NCBI GenBank assembly: GCA_965202855.1
Contig: CBDBBP010000004.1
Span: 1,107,213-1,171,212 of the forward strand
Length of the DNA stretch: 64,000 nt
DNA from: Arenicellales bacterium
Lineage (GTDB): Bacteria; Pseudomonadota; Gammaproteobacteria; Arenicellales; JAJDZL01
Reading direction: 5' to 3'
Notes under the pieces: model-generated
Told to the model about the DNA's origin: nothing
What the model saw: the letters and a program-made list of their open reading frames with translations, nothing else
Database searches by the model: none
Translations under genes and position numbers: made by a program
Shown: positions 45,150-56,047 of the stretch, one piece after another
How positions within the stretch are numbered: position 1 is the stretch's first letter
How the letters are laid out: the number at the start of each line of letters is the position of its first letter

Positions 45150-45395
45150 ATGACCAAAAAAAAGAATATGGCAGCGTTGACTTACCATGAAATGCATACT
45201 GATTCTCCAGACGAGCGAGGATCATTCTGGCGTACTGTACTTGATATACTCAGCAGCGGTGGGGGCGTCAATCCCGATTTCGGTGAAATTCGATATCCGA
45301 AGAATGCACAAAAACAGGATTTAGAGCGAATCGGTCAGGATTTTTCTAGAACACTTAGTAAATTTGACTCTTCAAAATTACATCGAAACGGCTGA
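45150..45395 (+). CDS. hypothetical small protein next to the CRISPR array
   Basis: 81-aa ORF with an AGGAGA 9 nt upstream of the ATG. No motif I recognise. An adjacent +1-frame ORF stays open to 45528. Confidence 0.4.
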   Translation: MTKKKNMAALTYHEMHTDSPDERGSFWRTVLDILSSGGGVNPDFGEIRYPKNAQKQDLERIGQDFSRTLSKFDSSKLHRNG

Positions 45396-45540
45396 GCGCA
45401 ATAAAGCCACTTCTGAGAAAGAATTCACCGAGAAAGAATCCTCTAGATCCGAATCTACTGAGAAAAATTCTTCGACATTTCGTATCGGTTGGGTATTAGA
45501 AGTATTAGTTAATGACCCGAAAGAGACATGATTCCCTTCG

Positions 45541-45557
45541 GTTTAAATTGCTGAAAC
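45541..45557 (+). repeat. internally deleted CRISPR repeat remnant
   Basis: GTTTAAATTGCTGAAAC equals repeat nt 1-14 (2 substitutions) joined to the last 3 nt of the repeat. A 21-nt spacer-like segment follows, then the degenerate first full repeat. Confidence 0.6.
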
Positions 45558-45578
45558 TTATGCTCCCACGCGAAATAA

Positions 45579-48500
45579 GTTTCAGTTACTGAGTAATCAG
45601 GTATATTGGTGAAACTTTTCGAGCCGCGAGCGAACTTGGAATTCGGACAATGTTTCAGTTGCTGAGTAGTCAGGTATATTGGTGAAACTTGAAGGCTATG
45701 AGGGAGAACGACACGCATTCACTGTTTCAGTTGCTGAGTAGTCAGGTATATTGGTGAAACCCCATTACGCTGCCCATCAGCCAAAACCAGATCATGTTTC
45801 AGTTGCTGAGTAGTCAGGTATATTGGTGAAACTTCAAGCGTTACTTGAATTGACGGCTGTCGTAAGTTTCAGTTGCTGAGTAGTCAGGTATATTGGTGAA
45901 ACAAAAGCAAACAACCGGATCAACAAGTCTTATGATTGTTTCAGTTGCTGAGTAGTCAGGTATATTGGTGAAACTGCCCTCCGATCTTGCGTTGCGTCAC
46001 TGCTTCCTGTTTCAGTTGCTGAGTAGTCAGGTATATTGGTGAAACTCAAGTTGATCGTGCGGGTCCGTCAGGAAGTCATTTGTTTCAGTTGCTGAGTAGT
46101 CAGGTATATTGGTGAAACCGCGAAAGGTTCAATCCGTTCCGGCACGTCTCGAGAGTTTCAGTTGCTGAGTAGTCAGGTATATTGGTGAAACTGCCCTCCG
46201 ATCTTGCGTTGCGTCACTGCTTCCTGTTTCAGTTGCTGAGTAGTCAGGTATATTGGTGAAACGTGTCAGACTTATGCGACCGTGATAGAGGCTTAGTTTC
46301 AGTTGCTGAGTAGTCAGGTATATTGGTGAAACCGAAAAAACTGGATGTAAACCTTGTCCATACAGGTTTCAGTTGCTGAGTAGTCAGGTATATTGGTGAA
46401 ACATCAATCCCAGTCGGAACCAAACAAATGTGATACCTGTTTCAGTTGCTGAGTAGTCAGGTATATTGGTGAAACAGCAAAACGATTTGCAGTTGAGCCG
46501 CAAAACGTTCTGTTTCAGTTGCTGAGTAGTCAGGTATATTGGTGAAACTCTGCAAAACTCCAGGTTGCGACAATCATCGGACGTTTCAGTTGCTGAGTAG
46601 TCAGGTATATTGGTGAAACACAGTTGTTCAACGAACACGTAGATATTTTCAAAGAGTTTCAGTTGCTGAGTAGTCAGGTATATTGGTGAAACGCAGATCC
46701 ACGGGATTATCAAGAGTTCGAACTACGAGTTTCAGTTGCTGAGTAGTCAGGTATATTGGTGAAACTGAAGGATGCGTAGCATAGACGCTTCGGTCATTAG
46801 GTTTCAGTTGCTGAGTAGTCAGGTATATTGGTGAAACTTGGCAATCCTCCATTCTCCGACCGAGCAATCACAGGTTTCAGTTGCTGAGTAGTCAGGTATA
46901 TTGGTGAAACTCCGATATCGGCGACCACCTAAACCACATGAAACAGTTTCAGTTGCTGAGTAGTCAGGTATATTGGTGAAACCATGAAGAGGGTAAAACC
47001 TACCGCTTGAGCAAACAGTTTCAGTTGCTGAGTAGTCAGGTATATTGGTGAAACTTGAACCACACACCGAAGCGAGGAACGAATCTTAGTTTCAGTTGCT
47101 GAGTAGTCAGGTATATTGGTGAAACCGAATGGTGCGAGGTGTCTAACTATAGGTATGCGCGTTTCAGTTGCTGAGTAGTCAGGTATATTGGTGAAACTAC
47201 ACGGTGTAGTGCAACCGCTTCGTTCATCCAGTGTTTCAGTTGCTGAGTAGTCAGGTATATTGGTGAAACCTTGATAAATCCCGCTGACGGCTGCGAGTAT
47301 GATCAGTTTCAGTTGCTGAGTAGTCAGGTATATTGGTGAAACCCAAAAAGAGTATTACAAGGTTGACAGTTTAGAGTGTTTCAGTTGCTGAGTAGTCAGG
47401 TATATTGGTGAAACTCAAGCTCAGATGAAACATGAGATTCCTGAGATCAGTTTCAGTTGCTGAGTAGTCAGGTATATTGGTGAAACGGCTCAGATAATAG
47501 TCGGACGTCTGGATCTTAAGGGTTTCAGTTGCTGAGTAGTCAGGTATATTGGTGAAACTGGTTGATCCATTAGATTATGAGTCAGGTGTGATAGTTTCAG
47601 TTGCTGAGTAGTCAGGTATATTGGTGAAACCAAAAGACAACGGTATCCTTGAAGTCATACCCGGCAGTTTCAGTTGCTGAGTAGTCAGGTATATTGGTGA
47701 AACTATTTAACGAATGGCAAATTAGAGAAATATACCAAGTTTCAGTTGCTGAGTAGTCAGGTATATTGGTGAAACGGTGAAATTTTGTCTATCTCAATTC
47801 CGTCTGGCATGTTTCAGTTGCTGAGTAGTCAGGTATATTGGTGAAACCGCACTGTGCCGACATACGGGTGAACTTCCCCTGAGTTTCAGTTGCTGAGTAG
47901 TCAGGTATATTGGTGAAACGATGAATTCGTTGAATAGCGCCAGCGATAAAGAGTGTTTCAGTTGCTGAGTAGTCAGGTATATTGGTGAAACCCAGAGAGT
48001 CGTCAACCGTGTCGTCAGATCTCAGAATGTTTCAGTTGCTGAGTAGTCAGGTATATTGGTGAAACGATTTGAGTGCTATAAGTCATGTGTGCCCTTAGAA
48101 TGTTTCAGTTGCTGAGTAGTCAGGTATATTGGTGAAACGCTGCCATGCTGACCGTCGACGGCGCAGAGGGAGTGGTTTCAGTTGCTGAGTAGTCAGGTAT
48201 ATTGGTGAAACGGTGTTGCGGATGACAATGTTGCAGTATTTCATATGTTTCAGTTGCTGAGTAGTCAGGTATATTGGTGAAACTGCTCAGGTCTTCAAAC
48301 ATGGCTAGGTTGTTATTGGTTTCAGTTGCTGAGTAGTCAGGTATATTGGTGAAACTGGATCGAGACACGTTTGAGCGAATTGTTCTGGAATCGTTTCAGT
48401 TGCTGAGTAGTCAGGTATATTGGTGAAACCGGGAAGGGAGAGCTCATCGAGGCCATGGCCAGGATGTTTCAGTTGCTGAGTAGTCAGGTATATTGGTGAA

Positions 48501-48865
48501 ACCGTTAAATTCTTTAAAATCCCTTTTAGTGTTGAAGTTTCAGTTGCTGAGTAGTCAGGTATATTGGTGAAACTTTGATTATTGGTTCGTCTTCGCGGGA
48601 GAGTGGGCGTTTCAGTTGCTGAGTAGTCAGGTATATTGGTGAAACTAGGATTCGTTCTTGCAGTTCAAACATTTAGCCTCCGAGTTTCAGTTGCTGAGTA
48701 GTCAGGTATATTGGTGAAACGAATTGCTAGGGGTGGAGGAAGCTTGCGACACGTAGTTTCAGTTGCTGAGTAGTCAGGTATATTGGTGAAACGTTGAACA
48801 GGTATATGATAGCGGTGATTTTGGGTATGTTTCAGTTGCTGAGTAGTCAGGTATATTGGTGAAAC
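45579..48865 (+). CRISPR. CRISPR array, 46 repeats / 45 spacers, type II-B
   Basis: The 37-nt repeat is GTTTCAGTTGCTGAGTAGTCAGGTATATTGGTGAAAC. I located 46 copies by hand. The first copy (45579-45615) carries G10A and G18A, and all the others appear identical. Spacers are 33-38 nt. The strand is assigned from the tracrRNA anti-repeat and from the 5' GTTTCAGTTGCTGA shared with the F. novicida crRNA repeat. Confidence 0.98.
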
Positions 48866-48973
48866 TCCATTCGATTTCTGTTTAAGAACAGTAATATATG
48901 GAAAATATGAGGGATAATATTTTCGAAAATGACCTTTCTGTACGAAAATCGACATTTTTTGCGAAAATATCTC

Positions 48974-49002
48974 TTGTGTAAAAGGAATGATTTCAATAAA
49001 AT
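48974..49002 (+). promoter_or_regulatory. sigma-70-type promoter of the tracrRNA
   Basis: -35 TTGTGT (48974-48979), a 17-nt spacer, and -10 TAAAAT (48997-49002). This predicts a start about 7 nt downstream, exactly at the anti-repeat. Confidence 0.6.
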
Positions 49003-49008
49003 TAAGAA

Positions 49009-49134
49009 AACCAATATAGTTGACTACTGATGCACTGTAATCATAAAAAAGTATTTTGATCGGACCTCTGCCTAGCACGTCTGAAATTGATTAGTAAAAT
49101 AGGATATCCACCCTTGGTTGGATATCCTATTTTT
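49009..49134 (+). ncRNA. tracrRNA
   Basis: The anti-repeat AACCAATATAGTTGACTACTGATGCACTG pairs with repeat nt 5-32 (perfect blocks of 9 bp and 8 bp). Downstream, GTAATCATAAAAAAGTATTTTGATCGGACCTCTGCCTAGCACGTCTGAAATTG is near-colinear with the F. novicida tracrRNA/sgRNA scaffold as I recall it. It ends in a 12-bp hairpin plus a T-run. Confidence 0.88.
49099..49134. terminator. bidirectional intrinsic terminator shared by tracrRNA and the convergent cas operon
   Basis: ATAGGATATCCA (49099-49110) / TGGATATCCTAT (49119-49130) with an 8-nt loop. AAAA lies upstream and TTTT downstream. It sits 17 nt past the cas4 stop. Confidence 0.8.
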
Positions 49135-49150
49135 ATGCTTCTCATCTACT

Positions 49151-49759
49151 TTAAAGTCTGTCATTACAAAAGTTAATGTATTCGCAGGAGCAACATTGAA
49201 AGACCGATGCATTGGAGTCAGGTTTCACACCGAGAGTTAGCATTTGTCGTATTGCATCGGCAATTTGTAAGACTTTTTGCCTTCTGTCTGTACTGATTTC
49301 AATGGTGTGCAACATTTTGCCTGCTCCAACAAGAAATCCATACTGGCTTGGTTTCGAAAAATGACTTTCTAACAGCATCGCATATGCAGTCAACTGCATA
49401 ATATCTCCGCGTTTTTTATTGCTCGCCGATATTTTGAACTCGATTGGATAAACGGCTTCATTAGTTTCAATAGCCATGTCAACAATACCGTGAATGCCAT
49501 AAAGATTATCCCGTATAGCGAGTTTGTAGAATTTCTCGCCATCTTTTAATTTAAACCGAGATAGATTGCGGCGCTGCCACAATTTTTCTTCCAACTGATG
49601 AAAATATTCGCCCTGTTTCACCCATAGTGGATAATTAGCAACAATATCTGTTAGTTCAATATAGTAAACAACTCTTGGGCAATAACACCACTGCCGCAAT
49701 AGGTTCGCAGGCACACTAAATGACTTCTGTTTCATTCCAATCTTTAAAGTCTTTAGCAC
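49151..49759 (-). CDS. cas4: CRISPR-associated exonuclease Cas4
   Basis: 202 aa with PD-(D/E)xK core (VDMAIE...PIEFK) and the 1+3 cysteine Fe-S pattern (WCYCPR near the N-terminus; CCSCEYINFC at the C-terminus). Confidence 0.9.
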   Translation of the reverse strand: MLKTLKIGMKQKSFSVPANLLRQWCYCPRVVYYIELTDIVANYPLWVKQGEYFHQLEEKLWQRRNLSRFKLKDGEKFYKLAIRDNLYGIHGIVDMAIETNEAVYPIEFKISASNKKRGDIMQLTAYAMLLESHFSKPSQYGFLVGAGKMLHTIEISTDRRQKVLQIADAIRQMLTLGVKPDSNASVFQCCSCEYINFCNDRL

Positions 49760-50039
49760 TGTATCCGATGAAAAAACTTTTCCCTCTACCGTTAAAATTA
49801 GTTCGAGTAATGAAAACTTTGTCAGTACTCCTAAAGTTAGTCTTCAGGAACCGTTTGATGGCCTCTGTTTCAGCGGTTGTTAAATATCCCCAAAACACGG
49901 ATTTCTGTACGGGTTTTAATCCCAATTTGCTCAGTTCATTGAAGATTTCAGTGCGCAGTTTATTGTTCGAAATATCGTAACTAACAAGATATTCTTGTCG
50001 GAGTGGATGCGTCATTCGATAAGACCGATTCTCTACCAC
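49716..50039 (-). CDS. cas2: CRISPR-associated endoribonuclease Cas2
   Basis: 107 aa. LVSYDISNNKLRTEIFNELSKLGLKPVQKSVFWGYL is the Cas2 ferredoxin-fold N-terminus. Located between cas1 and cas4. Confidence 0.88.
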   Translation of the reverse strand: MVENRSYRMTHPLRQEYLVSYDISNNKLRTEIFNELSKLGLKPVQKSVFWGYLTTAETEAIKRFLKTNFRSTDKVFITRTNFNGRGKSFFIGYSAKDFKDWNETEVI

Positions 50040-50992
50040 TTGAAAAGATATGGCCTGTAAGTTTTCTCTCCGTAAAAATGCCCGCAGAGTCTATAAATCT
50101 GCCTTTGAATAATATGTTCCAGTTTCAGCTTTCTTTTTCTATATAGATAACTTCTCGCACAAGTTCGTTGAACTTCAGATATTAGTGCCTTTTTTAGTTC
50201 CACATCTAAATCTTGCTTCTTTTCAATTCTAGAGCGCAATTTGATAACGACTCTGTCTACTACCCAAGAACGATATTCTTCCATCAGATCCAATACCAAT
50301 GCCATTTTGCCTGGACGTCTGCCATGTAGAATGCCGAGATAAGGTTCCAAGCCAGCATTGATGATCGAACTTAGAATGTAGGCACTTAGCATCGCGTATC
50401 CAAAGTTCAGCATGACATTATTGAGTTCTTGACTTCCGCGCCCTTCGCGTCTGCAGAACGAAGATGAAAATAAGCCGGCATTGCGCAATCCTCCAAAATA
50501 AGCACTCGCACTAGCACCTTCGTACCCTAAAAGGGTTTGAAAGTGACTTGTCTTATTAGCTTGGTTGGCGTAATCCAGTAGTTTTACAGCAGTTGACTGT
50601 AATTCCTCATTCTGATGATATTTACCCAGATGTTTAATTACTGCACGCTGATTCTTTATCTTCGCAACTACGATTTTTTTTGCGAGTGGCAGGGTGTCGC
50701 CTTGACAATATTTCATTTGCGCCATGCGAACGGCAACCACTCCGTGTTGTGATTGCCCTAGAATTGCTGAATGGGCTACACCACGATAATCTAAGAAGAA
50801 TAACTTAATGCCCCGAACACTAAACGCCTCAATTAAATCACTCGAAATACTAATTCCACGTTTTGCTATCGATACGGTACACAGACGATTAAGAGGATAA
50901 TATTTGGTGGCATTACCTCGCTGTTTGACCGCTAAACGATGACGCTCTAATCCAAGAAAAGTGCCGTAATCACATATTACTAGGTGCTTCAC
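50033..50992 (-). CDS. cas1: CRISPR-associated endonuclease Cas1
   Basis: 319 aa. The N-terminal beta domain begins LVICDYGTFLGLERHRLAV. The C-terminal helical domain carries conserved acidic/His residues (LGYEGASASAYF, LGILHGRRPGKMALVLDLMEEYR). Confidence 0.92.
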   Translation of the reverse strand: MKHLVICDYGTFLGLERHRLAVKQRGNATKYYPLNRLCTVSIAKRGISISSDLIEAFSVRGIKLFFLDYRGVAHSAILGQSQHGVVAVRMAQMKYCQGDTLPLAKKIVVAKIKNQRAVIKHLGKYHQNEELQSTAVKLLDYANQANKTSHFQTLLGYEGASASAYFGGLRNAGLFSSSFCRREGRGSQELNNVMLNFGYAMLSAYILSSIINAGLEPYLGILHGRRPGKMALVLDLMEEYRSWVVDRVVIKLRSRIEKKQDLDVELKKALISEVQRTCARSYLYRKRKLKLEHIIQRQIYRLCGHFYGEKTYRPYLFKW

Positions 50993-51103: not shown

Positions 51104-54100
51104 CTACGTTTCGTTCGAATCGCCGAAATAATACTGCTGTAAAATCTTACTCAAGGAACTCTTTATTTCGTTTGAAAAACCGTCTGCTTTGTACTCCATT
51201 AATTCAAACTCATTTGAATTCAAATTAGTTAGAAATTTCTCTTTCAATTTTTGAAAACTATCTTTTCTAGGCTTAAGTAAAGGGTCTTGAAATATCTCTT
51301 CAATTTTTTCTCTGGCCACCTGCTGATCGAATTTAAAGCGGATTCGAGGGCGAGTATTGTCTTCAATTCGGTATTCCAGTTCAGTCACACCATTTCTTTT
51401 CAAAGATTCGTTAAGTTCCACTCTATGCCATTTTTCCGTGTCAATCAATTTAACGGTATCACTTCGTTCAGAATTGTATTTTTGTCTCTTCAAAAAAAAT
51501 GTGTTCTGAGATTTGGCTGACTCGGAGAGTAACTTACCAATCTTACCTTCACTGTTGCAAACCGGGATAAACGCTTTGGCACCTAGTTTTTGAGAATTCG
51601 AATCATTGACGATCTGAAAAATTGGACTGTTGTTCCAAGATTTTCTCTTCAGCAACCTGTGCCCTTGATTCGATTTTATGGGCAATGAATAAACTTGACG
51701 AAATTTTTTGTGAGGGTGTTGGTGTCTATACCTGAAAAATCCTCTCAAAAATTCTCCATTTTCTAATTCTGATGACTTCTCCCATGCGTCAATGAGCATT
51801 TTCCATTCATTTCTCACTGGCAATATGAGATTCCCTTGATCTTTTGATAACTTAAAATTTTGCCCATTGTTCAAAATTTTCTTCGCATCATCCAATGTTG
51901 TGATTTGTTTTTTCTCAGTTCGATAAGAAAGCTTTTTTCTAAGAAAATTCATCTCATTGCTATAAACTTGACAACCTTTAGCCGTATTGTAGTTTTCTAT
52001 GTAATGAGAGTGGATCATTCGTGTATTCAATGAGATACAGAAATAGTCATTTTTTGATTTAAATCCAACTTGGATTAGCTGAGACCTTAGTGTCTGGAAA
52101 GTATCTTCTTCATTTAGTGCCAATAATTTTTTTTTGCGATTGAACTGAAGGGCAAAATTCAATTTTTCTCGATTTGGTTTGTAGTCTTTGAGTGGAAAAC
52201 TGTTCTTCCAGTCAAATCCAATACGAACTTCCGATAATTTTCGGTGTACAAGGATCGGCAGATAATGTTCGGCGTACATTCCATCGCGATGAATGGAGCG
52301 ATGTTTGAAATACTGTCGGTCAGGTTTGCGACGTTCCAAGGAAACCTCTCGGAAATTTTTTGGTTCAACTTGAATAGCCTTGAAGAGACTGTCATCATAG
52401 ACTCGAAAATGTGCGTTTTCCATTTGGCTCACTAATTGATCAACACGAGACCAAATTCCCGTTTTTCCCAATTCAAGCCTCAAACTTCCACTGCCGCGAT
52501 GTGCATCTGCCACCATGCAGAATGCCACTTGCGCATCTAACAGATGAGAATACGGTTTCTGAGGCGAATTATCACTTTTACTGTAGCTGGCTAGATCTGG
52601 GCGATAATAGGTAACCAAATCATGACGCAAATTGTGTATTCCATCGCCCCGGGAATTGTCCCGCGCTTCCACTCCAAAATAGTCAAATGAAAGTAAGTGA
52701 TGTTTGTCAATTCTTTTTGCTTTCTTATAAAGTGCGTTGGCTAATACTTCCGCAAAGTATCGTTGGGTTCCATTAACGAGCGATTTGGTTCGATGATTGA
52801 TAGTGCTAATAACGAGCTCTCGAAGGGGGTCACCTGCTTTGAGGAATAGTGCGTGTCGAAATGCTTTTCGTTGTTCTTTCGTCAAATTTATAAAATTGAA
52901 ATAGCGTCCAAATTTGAACTGCCCTCCTTGACCGTCGCCAATTGTATCTTTTATCCGTTTCTCTATTCGCGAGTCGTCAGCGGTTCCGAAAACGTGACGT
53001 TTGTAATGGGGATGCAAATCTGAAAGGGAAAATTCTGAATCTCCTTTATTTGCACGATTGTCTTGTTCACTGGTAAAAATCAGATTTGCTTCATCATTAA
53101 GCGTACCCCATTTAGGATGCGCTCTGGGAATAATATGATCGATATCCCCCGTGTTCCCCAATGTTACTCCTGAATATGGCGAAATTTGGGTTGATTTTCT
53201 GACTCTATTTCTTTTTGAATGTTGTATCTTCTTCAGGTCACTTGAATTAAATTCTCTTTTTCTTTTGTTATACTCCCTCGCGTCCAAATAGGGCCTTTTA
53301 AGCTCTAGCAAATTTGGTTCAAACTGAAACCGATTAGATTCTGTAATTATTGGTATCCGAACTTCTATACCCGATGATAAATTCTTCTCGATTTTTAACC
53401 ATTTATCTTTTGCGATAGCTGCGCCTAAAATTCGAGCTAGACGCATCACTGCACCATCAATCAGTCTGGTCGGAATCGCAGGCAAGCGTTGGGCTTTTAC
53501 ACTTTTTTCGAACATTTGCATTCTTTGGGCGTTATCCAAACTACAAACAGAGCAAGTTTTTGCATTTCCACGGCGCTCCTTGAATGCTATGTTGTTAATC
53601 TGAGCAAGCAGAAATACAGCACTTGCTGGATGGTCTTGAAGACTTTGATTCCATTTCTCTGATTGTGATTCATCATACAGTCGACTTCCTATTTCTCCAC
53701 ATACTTCAAGACACTTTTTTACAAGTTTGAATAATTCTTCATGAGAATTAGACTCACCCCAAACTTCAAGAATTTTATCCTTCAGCTGCCCACGGAATTT
53801 TTTTTGTTCCTTAGCTGCATCTGCGCTATTAGTCTTCAAGCCCTTGATATTTTTCAACCAAATTGTCAGCTCGGTATGGTCATTAGATTTTGTTCGTTTT
53901 TTAAGTTGCTTCGGGGATATCTGAAATAAGCCAGCTATATCACTGATCAGCTGATAACGCTTTTGTCTTGGCTTATGGTTGCAATAGGTGAGCAGGTGAT
54001 CACGGTCTTCAAAACGTCCAGTTTTTTTGAATCCACGACCTTTTATTAAGCGATACTCGGGATGAATGAATATCCTACCATCGCGCGCTTTCTGCCGATT

Positions 54101-56047
54101 TTTGTAATAGTTGCAGATTAAATGCATGAAACTCCCTTGAGCAAAGACACCGCTGTCATCGTAGTTCGGCCGTGTTTTGAAATTATCAGGCAATCTGCTG
54201 CAGTTCATCGCTTTTGCTAATTTTTCTCTCGTTTTCTCACGGTCTTTCCGACTAGACTGTTGTTGGCGAATTTTTTTCGTATGACTGAAAATTTCATTTA
54301 GCTTCAGTACGTCTTCGTCTTTCACCCGGTCTAATAGAAACTGCAATATTCGAGCGTCCAAATCCTTAGCAGTTCTGCACCCTGAATCTCTCTGAGGCGA
54401 ATTGGTTAACTTGCCACCAAAATAAGCAGTGCCTTTACTGCTCTTCAACTCTTCCATTTCCTTCTTGTAATTTCCTAGATATCCTTTTACTTCCGGCAGG
54501 CGCAACAGTTCTTTCAGCCATATTCTCCAGTCTCTGTAATCGTTATCCAAGAATTCTGTGTTGAGTACCAAGCTCTGACATTTCGGCGGACGCCGATTGT
54601 TTTTATCTTGGTATGGAGGAATAGTAAATAAAGGAGATTGCTCAAGCCAAAATTCAACAACGCTACCTTGATGAGCTTTGCATATTGAGCGAAGTTTTTG
54701 GTAGTCATATTCTGCGCCTGGTGCTTTGTCCAAGTCTTTTTCCGGATTTACGCGCCACTCCCGAAGTATCCAGTGTTCAAACTGATCTTTCAAGCGACTC
54801 CTGTCCCAATAATCACCCTGTTTATGTCTTTTTTCGTTGAAATATTTTCTGAGAGGTTTCAGTTCCAAATTACTCAAGTGACCGATGAGATTTGCCAGTG
54901 ACTGAGGAGTGAGAGAAGTACCATTTTGGATTCTAAATTCACCGGAATGCAGTCTCGTGCAGAATGAATTCAAATAGCCATGTTGGTGGTTCACGCATTC
55001 TAAGGTATCTTTAATCTCTTGAAAATATTTGCTTCTATGACGAGCACCCGTACTTAACTCCTGAATTACCGTATGCAAAGCGAATGCGAAGTGATGGATA
55101 TGAGTTCTTAACCAATTCTTCCGCGCTTGAAGAATTCTTTTATTTACTCTATTGGAATTATTCGATGTTTCTATCGGGTCGAACGAGGCTTTTTCGAGCT
55201 TAAACTTTTCGGCATCAAAGTTCCATATTGAAGCGTTCAATTCAGCATTTTCTTTTTCCAAGTCGGTGGGTAGACTGCTAAGAATTTCACTGGCAACCGA
55301 AGAGCTCTTCTGATTGAGTTTTTCAGCTAAGTCGACTGTTCTTCCTTCGTCTCGAATACAGTGTAACCCAACAATGCCCATATCATCCCAAGCATCAAGA
55401 ATCCATTCATTTAATCTAAACTTGTCTTGAGTTCGTTTGTTTACCTCTATCTGACTCCCTCCAATCCTTGTTTTACAACTTTCCTTCAGTAATTTTGTAC
55501 GATTAATGATTAGAAGATTGCGTTTAATCTTTTTCGGTTTTTCAATAACAGACTTGAATATTTCCTTGATTTCAGATCGACCATGCTGCTTCCATTCGGA
55601 CATCTTTTCATCTAAATTACAGGTGTCTCGTATTTCACCAAATTGATTCTGGACCGCTTCTGGAAGTTCCCTAAATGCAGGCTCTGGAAAGTACTTTAAG
55701 GCTTCTGCATCATATTCTTCGGACAGATAACTAAACCCTCTGCGATTGAACAGAAAACCGATAGTCTGCTGAGTCTTTACGTCCCATTCCAAACCAAACT
55801 CTTGGCACCAGATCAGTCGAAACAAACGCTTTACCATTTGCCTGCGTTTGTATCCTCGCCGTTGATGACGTCTGGCAGTTCTTTCGGGCATCATTAACGT
55901 AAATGCGTTTTTCTCCAACTGATACACTTTTCCTTCTTTCTCAATTTCTCCTAGAGAACTTCCAGCTTGATAATGAGCGAAGTACACTCCAGTGCTTTTC
56001 GAACCAAGATCTATGGAAATAGGACTAATTACTAATCGTTTCGGCAT
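51104..56047 (-). CDS. cas9: type II-B CRISPR-associated endonuclease Cas9 (1647 aa, FnCas9-like)
   Basis: RuvC-I ISIDLGSKSTGVYF; Arg-rich bridge helix RTARRHQRRGYKRRQMVKRLFRLIW; RuvC-II IPIITESNRFQFEP; HNH DIDHIIPRAHPKWGTLNDEANLIFTSEQDNRANKG; RuvC-III SHLLDAQVAFCMVADAH. Long colinear blocks match F. novicida Cas9 (e.g. LELKPLRKYFN, TIPPYQDKNNRRPPKCQSL, LTYCNHKPRQKRYQL, AQRLPAIPTR). Confidence 0.97.
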   Translation of the reverse strand: MPKRLVISPISIDLGSKSTGVYFAHYQAGSSLGEIEKEGKVYQLEKNAFTLMMPERTARRHQRRGYKRRQMVKRLFRLIWCQEFGLEWDVKTQQTIGFLFNRRGFSYLSEEYDAEALKYFPEPAFRELPEAVQNQFGEIRDTCNLDEKMSEWKQHGRSEIKEIFKSVIEKPKKIKRNLLIINRTKLLKESCKTRIGGSQIEVNKRTQDKFRLNEWILDAWDDMGIVGLHCIRDEGRTVDLAEKLNQKSSSVASEILSSLPTDLEKENAELNASIWNFDAEKFKLEKASFDPIETSNNSNRVNKRILQARKNWLRTHIHHFAFALHTVIQELSTGARHRSKYFQEIKDTLECVNHQHGYLNSFCTRLHSGEFRIQNGTSLTPQSLANLIGHLSNLELKPLRKYFNEKRHKQGDYWDRSRLKDQFEHWILREWRVNPEKDLDKAPGAEYDYQKLRSICKAHQGSVVEFWLEQSPLFTIPPYQDKNNRRPPKCQSLVLNTEFLDNDYRDWRIWLKELLRLPEVKGYLGNYKKEMEELKSSKGTAYFGGKLTNSPQRDSGCRTAKDLDARILQFLLDRVKDEDVLKLNEIFSHTKKIRQQQSSRKDREKTREKLAKAMNCSRLPDNFKTRPNYDDSGVFAQGSFMHLICNYYKNRQKARDGRIFIHPEYRLIKGRGFKKTGRFEDRDHLLTYCNHKPRQKRYQLISDIAGLFQISPKQLKKRTKSNDHTELTIWLKNIKGLKTNSADAAKEQKKFRGQLKDKILEVWGESNSHEELFKLVKKCLEVCGEIGSRLYDESQSEKWNQSLQDHPASAVFLLAQINNIAFKERRGNAKTCSVCSLDNAQRMQMFEKSVKAQRLPAIPTRLIDGAVMRLARILGAAIAKDKWLKIEKNLSSGIEVRIPIITESNRFQFEPNLLELKRPYLDAREYNKRKREFNSSDLKKIQHSKRNRVRKSTQISPYSGVTLGNTGDIDHIIPRAHPKWGTLNDEANLIFTSEQDNRANKGDSEFSLSDLHPHYKRHVFGTADDSRIEKRIKDTIGDGQGGQFKFGRYFNFINLTKEQRKAFRHALFLKAGDPLRELVISTINHRTKSLVNGTQRYFAEVLANALYKKAKRIDKHHLLSFDYFGVEARDNSRGDGIHNLRHDLVTYYRPDLASYSKSDNSPQKPYSHLLDAQVAFCMVADAHRGSGSLRLELGKTGIWSRVDQLVSQMENAHFRVYDDSLFKAIQVEPKNFREVSLERRKPDRQYFKHRSIHRDGMYAEHYLPILVHRKLSEVRIGFDWKNSFPLKDYKPNREKLNFALQFNRKKKLLALNEEDTFQTLRSQLIQVGFKSKNDYFCISLNTRMIHSHYIENYNTAKGCQVYSNEMNFLRKKLSYRTEKKQITTLDDAKKILNNGQNFKLSKDQGNLILPVRNEWKMLIDAWEKSSELENGEFLRGFFRYRHQHPHKKFRQVYSLPIKSNQGHRLLKRKSWNNSPIFQIVNDSNSQKLGAKAFIPVCNSEGKIGKLLSESAKSQNTFFLKRQKYNSERSDTVKLIDTEKWHRVELNESLKRNGVTELEYRIEDNTRPRIRFKFDQQVAREKIEEIFQDPLLKPRKDSFQKLKEKFLTNLNSNEFELMEYKADGFSNEIKSSLSKILQQYYFGDSNET

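Follow-up and report, generated by a model that had tools for sequence, protein, structure and literature searches.

A type II-B CRISPR array read towards its cas operon: probable spacer gain at the transcript-distal end and possible promoters within the repeats

The window analyzed here is a stretch of 64,000 nucleotides (nt) from an Arenicellales bacterium (NCBI GenBank assembly GCA_965202855.1, contig CBDBBP010000004.1, positions 1,107,213 to 1,171,212 of the forward strand), and it carries a CRISPR-Cas locus of type II-B whose array is read head-on towards the cas operon. Judged by comparison with related loci, the old end of this array very probably lies at 45.6 kb, where the transcribed strand begins, with new spacers being added at the cas-proximal end. 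By the same comparison this apparently backward polarity is the standard architecture of type II-B systems and is not peculiar to the window. The explanation that we favor goes further and places a weak promoter in every repeat. Taken as a whole it is offered tentatively, with slightly less than an even chance of being right, and the promoter activity, the start site and the geometry of spacer integration are the parts of it that we infer. The elements of the array and of its flanks are as follows, in the numbering of the window.

45541–45557, plus strand: repeat remnant (GTTTAAATTGCTGAAAC), in which repeat nt ~15–34 are gone and with them the TATATT box
45558–45578, plus strand: pseudo-spacer of 21 nt, between the remnant and R1
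45579–48865, plus strand: CRISPR array of 46 repeats of 37 nt and 45 spacers of 33–38 nt; the CRISPR RNA (crRNA) sense is plus
45579–45615, plus strand: R1, the sole full repeat with mutations (G10A, G18A) and the first in transcription order
45675–45680, plus strand: TATATT in R2, given as an example (repeat nt 24–29), with a predicted start at repeat nt 36
48829–48865, plus strand: R46, a perfect consensus repeat that abuts the conserved leader; putative site of spacer integration
48866–49007, no strand assigned: leader and promoter region of the trans-activating crRNA (tracrRNA), with a TCC junction, a weak inverted repeat at 48866–48902 and a TTTCGAAAA box at 48921–48929
49008–49135, plus strand: tracrRNA gene, with the anti-repeat at 49009–49037, a scaffold, and a terminator hairpin with a U-run at 49096–49135

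The consensus of the 37-nt repeat is GTTTCAGTTGCTGAGTAGTCAGGTATATTGGTGAAAC. A preliminary description of this DNA had named R1 as the only mutated full repeat and had placed both it and the remnant beside it at the upstream end, and comparison of the repeats confirmed this, with neither of the R1 mutations occurring in R2–R46. Its statement that every repeat contains TATATT at nt 24–29, 8 nt before the repeat 3' end, was likewise found to be correct for all 46 repeats.

The crRNA strand is plus, and four independent lines fix it. Duplex prediction pairs the plus-strand anti-repeat at 49009–49037 with repeat nt 5–32, and a tracrRNA made from the plus strand is able to pair only with plus-strand repeats. 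The Rfam model FtrA matches 49016–49128 (+) over the full model length with 39 bits (E = 0.0045, below the gathering score); in the Francisella locus it scores 141 bits at the tracrRNA, on the strand opposite cas9. At 49096–49135 (+) there is a strong hairpin followed by a U-run (fold z = −3.9). The fourth line is given by the protospacers of spacers 2 and 3 on metagenome contigs, which have TGG and CGG directly 3' in the plus sense only, the other side sharing no motif; NGG is the protospacer adjacent motif (PAM) expected of a Francisella-like Cas9. Because the guide strand is plus, the array should be read from 45.6 kb towards cas4, and the head-on arrangement with the cas operon proposed earlier is borne out by both the tracrRNA pairing and the 3' NGG.

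It is extremely improbable, given these lines, that the crRNA strand is instead minus and co-directional with the cas genes, in which case the AT-rich DNA at 48.87 kb would serve as an ordinary promoter-bearing upstream leader. Both scaffold and terminator of the tracrRNA are plus-strand features with homology to that of Francisella, GTTTCAGTTGC at the 5' end of the repeat agrees with the Francisella crRNA sense, and RNA sequencing (RNA-seq) has shown the F. novicida array to be read opposite to its cas operon (PMC3737331). What the minus strand has in its favor is the "Cas Orientation" rule, behind which there are no experimental II-B data and by which II-B arrays would be co-oriented with their cas genes (PMC6737040), together with promoter-like sites on that strand at 48982–48954 and 49041–49013. 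The latter site (49013–49041, minus strand) reads ATTACA-17-TATATT (9/12) and lies inside the anti-repeat as a mirror of the repeat box, facing the leader and the array.

The NGG-flanked protospacers of spacers 2 (45689–45723) and 3 (45761–45795) were present on contigs from several sponge metagenomes. Sample X8 holds a perfect match to spacer 3. In the source sample, X2, the target of this spacer deviates at its PAM-proximal end (...CCA|TCAT|CGG, compared with ...CCAGATCAT in the spacer), and this variant may be an escape variant. No match to the array was found in a phage collection. Scans of metagenome contigs gave no hit for Cas4, and for a DNA pattern of two repeats they gave coding tandem repeats only.

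To place the layout in context, the array, tracrRNA and cas genes were compared across type II-B systems. A genome scan with a Cas9 alignment gave 40 type II-B loci from many phyla, in 36 of which an array could be detected; counts given below out of 37 refer to these 36 and the window. In 35 of the 36 other loci the array follows the cas operon on its downstream side, with the repeats in antisense orientation. As Francisella shares this layout as well, the polarity that had first been presented as a paradox of this locus does not stand as one. Opposite transcription of array and cas operon is also known by RNA-seq from Neisseria meningitidis and Campylobacter jejuni, and in these two the degenerate-repeat rule gives the wrong direction (PMC3737331). 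The single exception, L014, has its array, leader and tracrRNA together on the upstream side of cas9 and in the same orientation as that gene, the unit keeping its internal order, including a mutated first repeat.

In 15 of the 37 loci, again from many phyla, mutated, degenerate or 5'-truncated repeats occupy the cas-distal end, which is the 5' end in crRNA sense. At the opposite, cas-proximal end there was one such locus, with a single mismatch in its last repeat. The Francisella locus follows the same order, with a degenerate copy resembling the small CRISPR/Cas-associated RNA (scaRNA), two G13A repeats, four consensus repeats and, ~110 nt on, the tracrRNA. In the papers searched, no report of repeat promoters or of the leader position was found for type II-B.

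Closely related populations indicate which end of the array is old. L048, a syntenic relative of ~95% nucleotide identity with 10 repeats, keeps the flank, remnant, pseudo-spacer, leader and tracrRNA, and has consensus bases at the R1 positions that are mutated in the window. Two further populations known from metagenome contigs, X3 and X5, have flanks ~95% identical to the window, retain the remnant and the leader, and differ from the window in every spacer. X3 certainly retains R1 with both mutations and X5 likely does, its contig reaching only to 45607; in X3, R1 is followed by no more than one new spacer, a repeat of consensus sequence and the leader seen in the window. Since X3 (and likely X5) keeps the mutated R1 with entirely different spacers, R1 marks the old end. 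Since its mutations are absent from the newer repeats, R1 is not the repeat copied at acquisition, which makes the 45.6-kb end the probable trailer and puts acquisition at the cas-proximal end. The earlier proposal that the degenerate end is the oldest is in this way upheld by X3 and X5 and by the 15 loci as opposed to one, and the comparison of strains and metagenomes points to gain next to the cas genes and not at 45.6 kb. Its suggestion of an uncoupling between acquisition and transcription, of the kind known from type II-C, finds support in the related strains and in the comparison across the family.

With a canonical polarity, the flank at 45.4–45.58 kb would be the true leader, spacers would be gained next to R1, and the R1 mutations and the remnant would be accidental. 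Promoter and newest spacers would then be at one end, as in most CRISPR types, and spacers 2 and 3, which are adjacent to R1, are indeed the only ones with near-perfect protospacers in related metagenomes, including the source sample. The detection of protospacers, however, was confined to runs holding relatives of the window genome. Duplication of R1 would also have passed on its two mutations, and R2–R46 are free of them. The survival of the mutated R1 beside wholly different spacers, the bias of degenerate and truncated repeats towards the R1-type end, and a conserved leader module at the other end all speak against gain at R1, and we regard this polarity as very improbable.

The unit of remnant, pseudo-spacer and R1 (45541–45615) has been kept in the window, L048, X3 and X5 despite their unrelated arrays, and it sits where Francisella has its scaRNA. 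The remnant has single-nucleotide polymorphisms, one each, in L048, X3 and X5, and the pseudo-spacer is conserved in all three; in a minor X4 variant, a full repeat with 4 mismatches replaces the remnant. The upstream flank is 95–96% identical to L048, which is the genome-wide level, and it gives no sign of special constraint. No spacers were in common among the 37 species-level loci, nor between the window and L048. Spacers 6 (45975–46008) and 9 (46192–46225) of the window are identical to each other, and duplicate spacers inside one array are frequent in type II-B (17 of the 37 loci).

The AT-rich, leader-like DNA that the preliminary description had pointed out at the cas-proximal end proved to be part of a module conserved across the family. 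The segment 48866–48985 is 70% A+T, compared with 55% across the whole window, and the leader region is 96% identical in L048. Where it abuts the last repeat, the junction reads CCC in most II-B loci and TCC in the clade of the window. An inverted repeat begins at leader nt 1 (z < −2 in 21 of the 37 loci), its structure being kept although the sequences differ, and the leader folds with a mean energy of −15.3 kcal/mol, the other flank with one of −7.2 kcal/mol. Some 60 nt into the leader there is a TTTCGCAAA/TTTCGAAAA box (TTTCGMAAA), and across II-B loci the anti-repeat of a co-oriented tracrRNA is found 120–160 nt after the last repeat. The leader hairpin is without a U-run and so is not a classical terminator; an integration signal, an RNA 3'-end structure and an insulator are candidate roles for it.

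By this comparison, the leader is transcript-distal and the degenerate repeat transcript-proximal. The canonical layout with a leader-borne promoter, as in type II-A, is not what is seen, the first transcribed repeat being degenerate and the leader lying downstream. A precedent exists in type II-C, where experiments have shown that the leader flanks the transcript-distal repeat and that repeat-embedded promoters drive transcription (PMC12477760; see also PMC5965381).

Under the explanation favored here, transcription would most likely begin, at least in part, inside every repeat. Each repeat would carry a weak sigma-70 promoter made up of GTTTCA at nt 1–6, a 17-bp spacer, G22 and TATATT at nt 24–29, with a start at about nt 36, and each spacer would have its own start, including the newest one 3.3 kb downstream. 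Comparative data raise this idea from a guess about one locus to a possible conserved feature of the family, a step to which we give a little under half of our confidence. The pattern TAnnnT is present at repeat nt 24–29 in 36 of the 37 loci. Over 34 unique repeats, conservation is 0.97 at T24, 0.91 at A25, 0.91 at T29 and 0.94 at G22 (32/34), which corresponds to position −14, and repeat nt 17–21, 23 and 30–31 vary freely among II-B repeats. The full TGnTATACT occurs in 8 loci and also in Francisella (TGGTAAACT) and Wolinella, making at least 10 lineages; additional repeat sequences for this comparison were taken from PMC6199352. There is a purine at nt 36, seven bases past the hexamer, in 31 of the 34 unique repeats.

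The box of the window itself, AGGTATATT, matches the −10 consensus at 5/6 positions and has G at −14 and no T at −15, and GTTTCA matches the −35 consensus at 3/6 with a spacing of 17. The absence of a good −35 and of a TG extension, conceded when the repeat promoter was first suggested, was thus confirmed. What has stood of that suggestion is an extended −10-like block at a fixed position, joined to a lack of external promoter signal; weakening it is the finding that the box also lies in the tracrRNA duplex.

Five loci (L009, L010, L039, L041 and L042) have at their cas-distal edge an outermost copy consisting of the 3' half of a repeat only (nt ~11–23 to 37). These half-repeats include TATACT, and the 5' half is replaced at a sharp boundary by unrelated sequence. 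They fit the promoter idea, and boundary deletions together with detection bias explain them equally well.

The main rival to promoters within the repeats keeps the same polarity and supposes a single external promoter upstream of R1, giving one 3.3-kb precursor crRNA (pre-crRNA) that would be cut by tracrRNA and RNase III with 5' trimming, the box being kept for the duplex or for the integrase. We consider it a serious possibility, though one somewhat short of even. It agrees with the textbook account of II-A and II-B biogenesis (PMC5965381, PMC8616872), and candidates for its start are the promoter of a small open reading frame (ORF) upstream of the array and sites inside or downstream of this ORF:

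45150–45395, plus strand: ORF of 81 aa on the cas-distal side of the array and in the same orientation; read-through transcription may originate here

The co-orientation of this ORF with the array favors a single promoter. It is conserved and syntenic in L048, the 95%-identical relative, and has no NCBIfam match. The stretch from 45396 to 45578, ~180 nt immediately before the array, held no promoter-like site, and in the cas-distal flanks of 35 loci, which are mutually non-homologous, promoter-like sites were not enriched (mean best score 7.94, controls 7.86). Both results count against an external start. No boxA antitermination site was found, and an untranslated RNA of such length would be open to termination by Rho, with the lowest expression expected for the newest spacers. 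Repeat nt G22, T32 and G33 are conserved even though G33 is paired in only 44% of the loci, which also counts against this rival.

A TGaTATACT at 45242–45250, the only extended −10 box nearby, speaks for the single promoter by its presence and was considered as a conserved external promoter. It was rejected as such because the box is lost in L048, where the site reads TGATGTACT.

A look-up for RNA runs of the organism itself yielded none; RNA data came from the metatranscriptome of a related organism, X7, as assembled contigs that are direction-less and carry no 5'-end information. One RNA contig of 282 nt is colinear with last-repeat nt 8–37, the leader and the tracrRNA as far as 49117 (window 48836–49117); it thus covers the tracrRNA at 49020–49117 and has nothing on cas4. 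A second contig contains a spacer with repeats on both sides. Because the first contig is colinear across all three elements, array, leader and tracrRNA are expressed together in this relative. This suggests a read-through transcript from array to tracrRNA, in which the repeat of the newest spacer could pair in cis with the anti-repeat.

Several observations weigh against promoters within the repeats, and a number of them favor the single promoter at the same time. The RNA contigs of the relative span whole repeats and so include repeat sequence upstream of the predicted start, which means that multi-unit read-through transcripts exist in any case. By consensus the repeat promoter of the window is weak, with a score of 8/12 that is below the scan threshold and does not exceed what chance yields at best over 250 nt of random sequence. 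The TATAYT block falls within the repeat:anti-repeat duplex, where the anti-repeat is equally conserved and pairing is strictly Watson-Crick. Conservation of the box could accordingly reflect a constraint at the RNA level, such as an RNase III site or a Cas9 contact, or recognition by Cas1-Cas2, and constraint on DNA and on RNA is inseparable here because the anti-repeat opposite the box is as conserved as the repeat. In trailer repeats, nt 24–29 are not exempt from point mutations (~5 of ~40, with ~6.5 expected), a Legionella II-B repeat is without the box, and reviews give II-B biogenesis as pre-crRNA and RNase III (PMC8616872).

Returning to promoters within the repeats, the mechanism as a whole would run as follows. 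Spacer integration and crRNA transcription would start from opposite ends of the array. The integration leader would be the conserved segment between 48865 and the tracrRNA gene, new spacers would enter next to R46, and R1 with the remnant and the 21-nt pseudo-spacer (45.54–45.62 kb) would form a decaying trailer. Type I systems with a Cas4 orient each new spacer so that its PAM-derived end is on the leader side, and the type-I-like Cas1-Cas2-Cas4 module would do likewise here. As Cas9 reads its PAM 3' of the protospacer, a guide inserted in this way would have to be read towards the leader. The crRNAs would then be made on the plus strand, towards the leader, tracrRNA and cas4, and transcripts would continue into the leader and on to the tracrRNA terminator. 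Pairing of the tracrRNA at repeat nt 5–32, with RNase III, would generate the 3' handle, and trimming would shape the 5' end. It is possible, though we hold this with more reserve than the reading for the window, that II-B repeats in general are complete promoter cassettes (GTTTCA, a 17-bp spacer, (T)G-n-TATAYT and a purine start at nt 36), each spacer being transcribed alone and gained at a leader that is transcript-distal and tracrRNA-proximal. Read-through from the last units, past the leader hairpin and into the tracrRNA, would then give an array-tracrRNA co-transcript that favors the newest spacer.

The cas genes that the array faces all lie on the minus strand:

49151–49759, minus strand: cas4 (TIGR00372, E = 2.5e-26)
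49716–50039, minus strand: cas2 (TIGR01573)
50033–50992, minus strand: cas1 (TIGR00287, 201 bits)
51104–56047, minus strand: cas9/csx12 of type II-B, 1647 aa (TIGR03031, 577 bits with a cut-off of 399, E = 5.9e-173)

When compared to subtype models, Cas1 scored 148 bits with Cas1c, 139 with Cas1d and 122 with cas1_NMENI, and so resembles the type I-C/I-D models more than the type II model. The Pfam domains Csx12 and Cas9_C_2 were found on Cas9 homologues. The locus has a Csx12-family Cas9, cas1-cas2-cas4 downstream of cas9, an adjacent tracrRNA and 37-nt repeats, a length typical of II-B (PMC3737331). The gene set of type II-C, cas9-cas1-cas2 only with a short Cas9, differs from it in that cas4 is present here and Cas9 has 1647 aa. 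It is an ordinary, complete and probably active type II-B CRISPR-Cas locus. It is placed between sucA and pyruvate carboxylase, and its closest relatives among the fetched loci are sponge-associated metagenome-assembled genomes titled Arenicellales. Identity to L048 is 89% over the segment 48175–53243 (from cas4 into the 3' part of cas9) and 95–96% for the flanking housekeeping genes; the cas genes either diverged faster than the genome background or were exchanged.

The direction of an array decides which target strand a spacer matches and where the PAM is located, and automatic tools are wrong or undecided on direction for most II-B arrays (PMC6737040). A rule that has II-B arrays read in the direction of tracrRNA and cas4, and that takes the cas-distal end as the old one, would correct spacer-target and PAM assignments. 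If the (T)GnTATAYT box works as a promoter, the single precursor of II-B crRNA biogenesis would have to give way to many short primary transcripts. II-B and II-C would have repeat-borne promoters in common, and the continued expression of the newest spacers in long arrays would be explained. The type-I-like Cas1-Cas2-Cas4 module may force reading towards the leader, which would give a mechanistic reason why II-B is backward when compared to II-A.

The known system most similar to that of the window is the locus of F. novicida U112. It has the same gene set (cas9/csx12-cas1-cas2-cas4), a 37-nt repeat starting GTTTCAGTTGCTGA, a tracrRNA (Rfam FtrA) encoded antisense to the cas genes in the interval that separates cas4 from the array, an array read towards the cas genes (PMC3737331) and an NGG PAM. 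Mutated repeats and a degenerate unit at the scaRNA position are found at its cas-distal end, and it has a −10-like box at repeat nt 24–29 (TGGTAAACT). The two differ in that the Cas9 of F. novicida is 40% identical to that of the window, the host of the window is a sponge-associated bacterium, and its array is much longer, with 46 repeats. The trailer of the window is a deleted repeat with a 21-nt pseudo-spacer that abuts R1, whereas the Francisella scaRNA gene is separate, ~170 nt away, and the window box is without the T of the TGn extension.

With the type II-C systems of N. meningitidis and of C. jejuni, the window shares a convergent orientation of array and cas operon, a −10-like box in each repeat's 3' part, an acquisition leader at the transcript-distal repeat and, transcript-proximally, a repeat that is degenerate (PMC3737331, PMC12477760). 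In II-C the promoter activity and the 5'-triphosphate ends come from experiments, whereas in the window a promoter is predicted. The II-C box is at the very 3' end of the repeat and the start at spacer nt 6 (PMC12477760); in the window the box is 8 nt from the repeat end, which would put the start at the repeat/spacer junction and leave a spacer of ~35 nt to trim. Type II-C also has no cas4, and its tracrRNA is elsewhere in the locus. The II-A systems of Streptococcus pyogenes and S. thermophilus resemble the window in maturation by tracrRNA, RNase III and Cas9, in 5' spacer trimming and in an integrase that acts at the leader-repeat junction. They differ in having a promoter-bearing leader upstream of the array, newest spacers that are transcribed first, a degenerate repeat at the transcript-distal end, and Csn2, not Cas4, as the accessory protein of adaptation.

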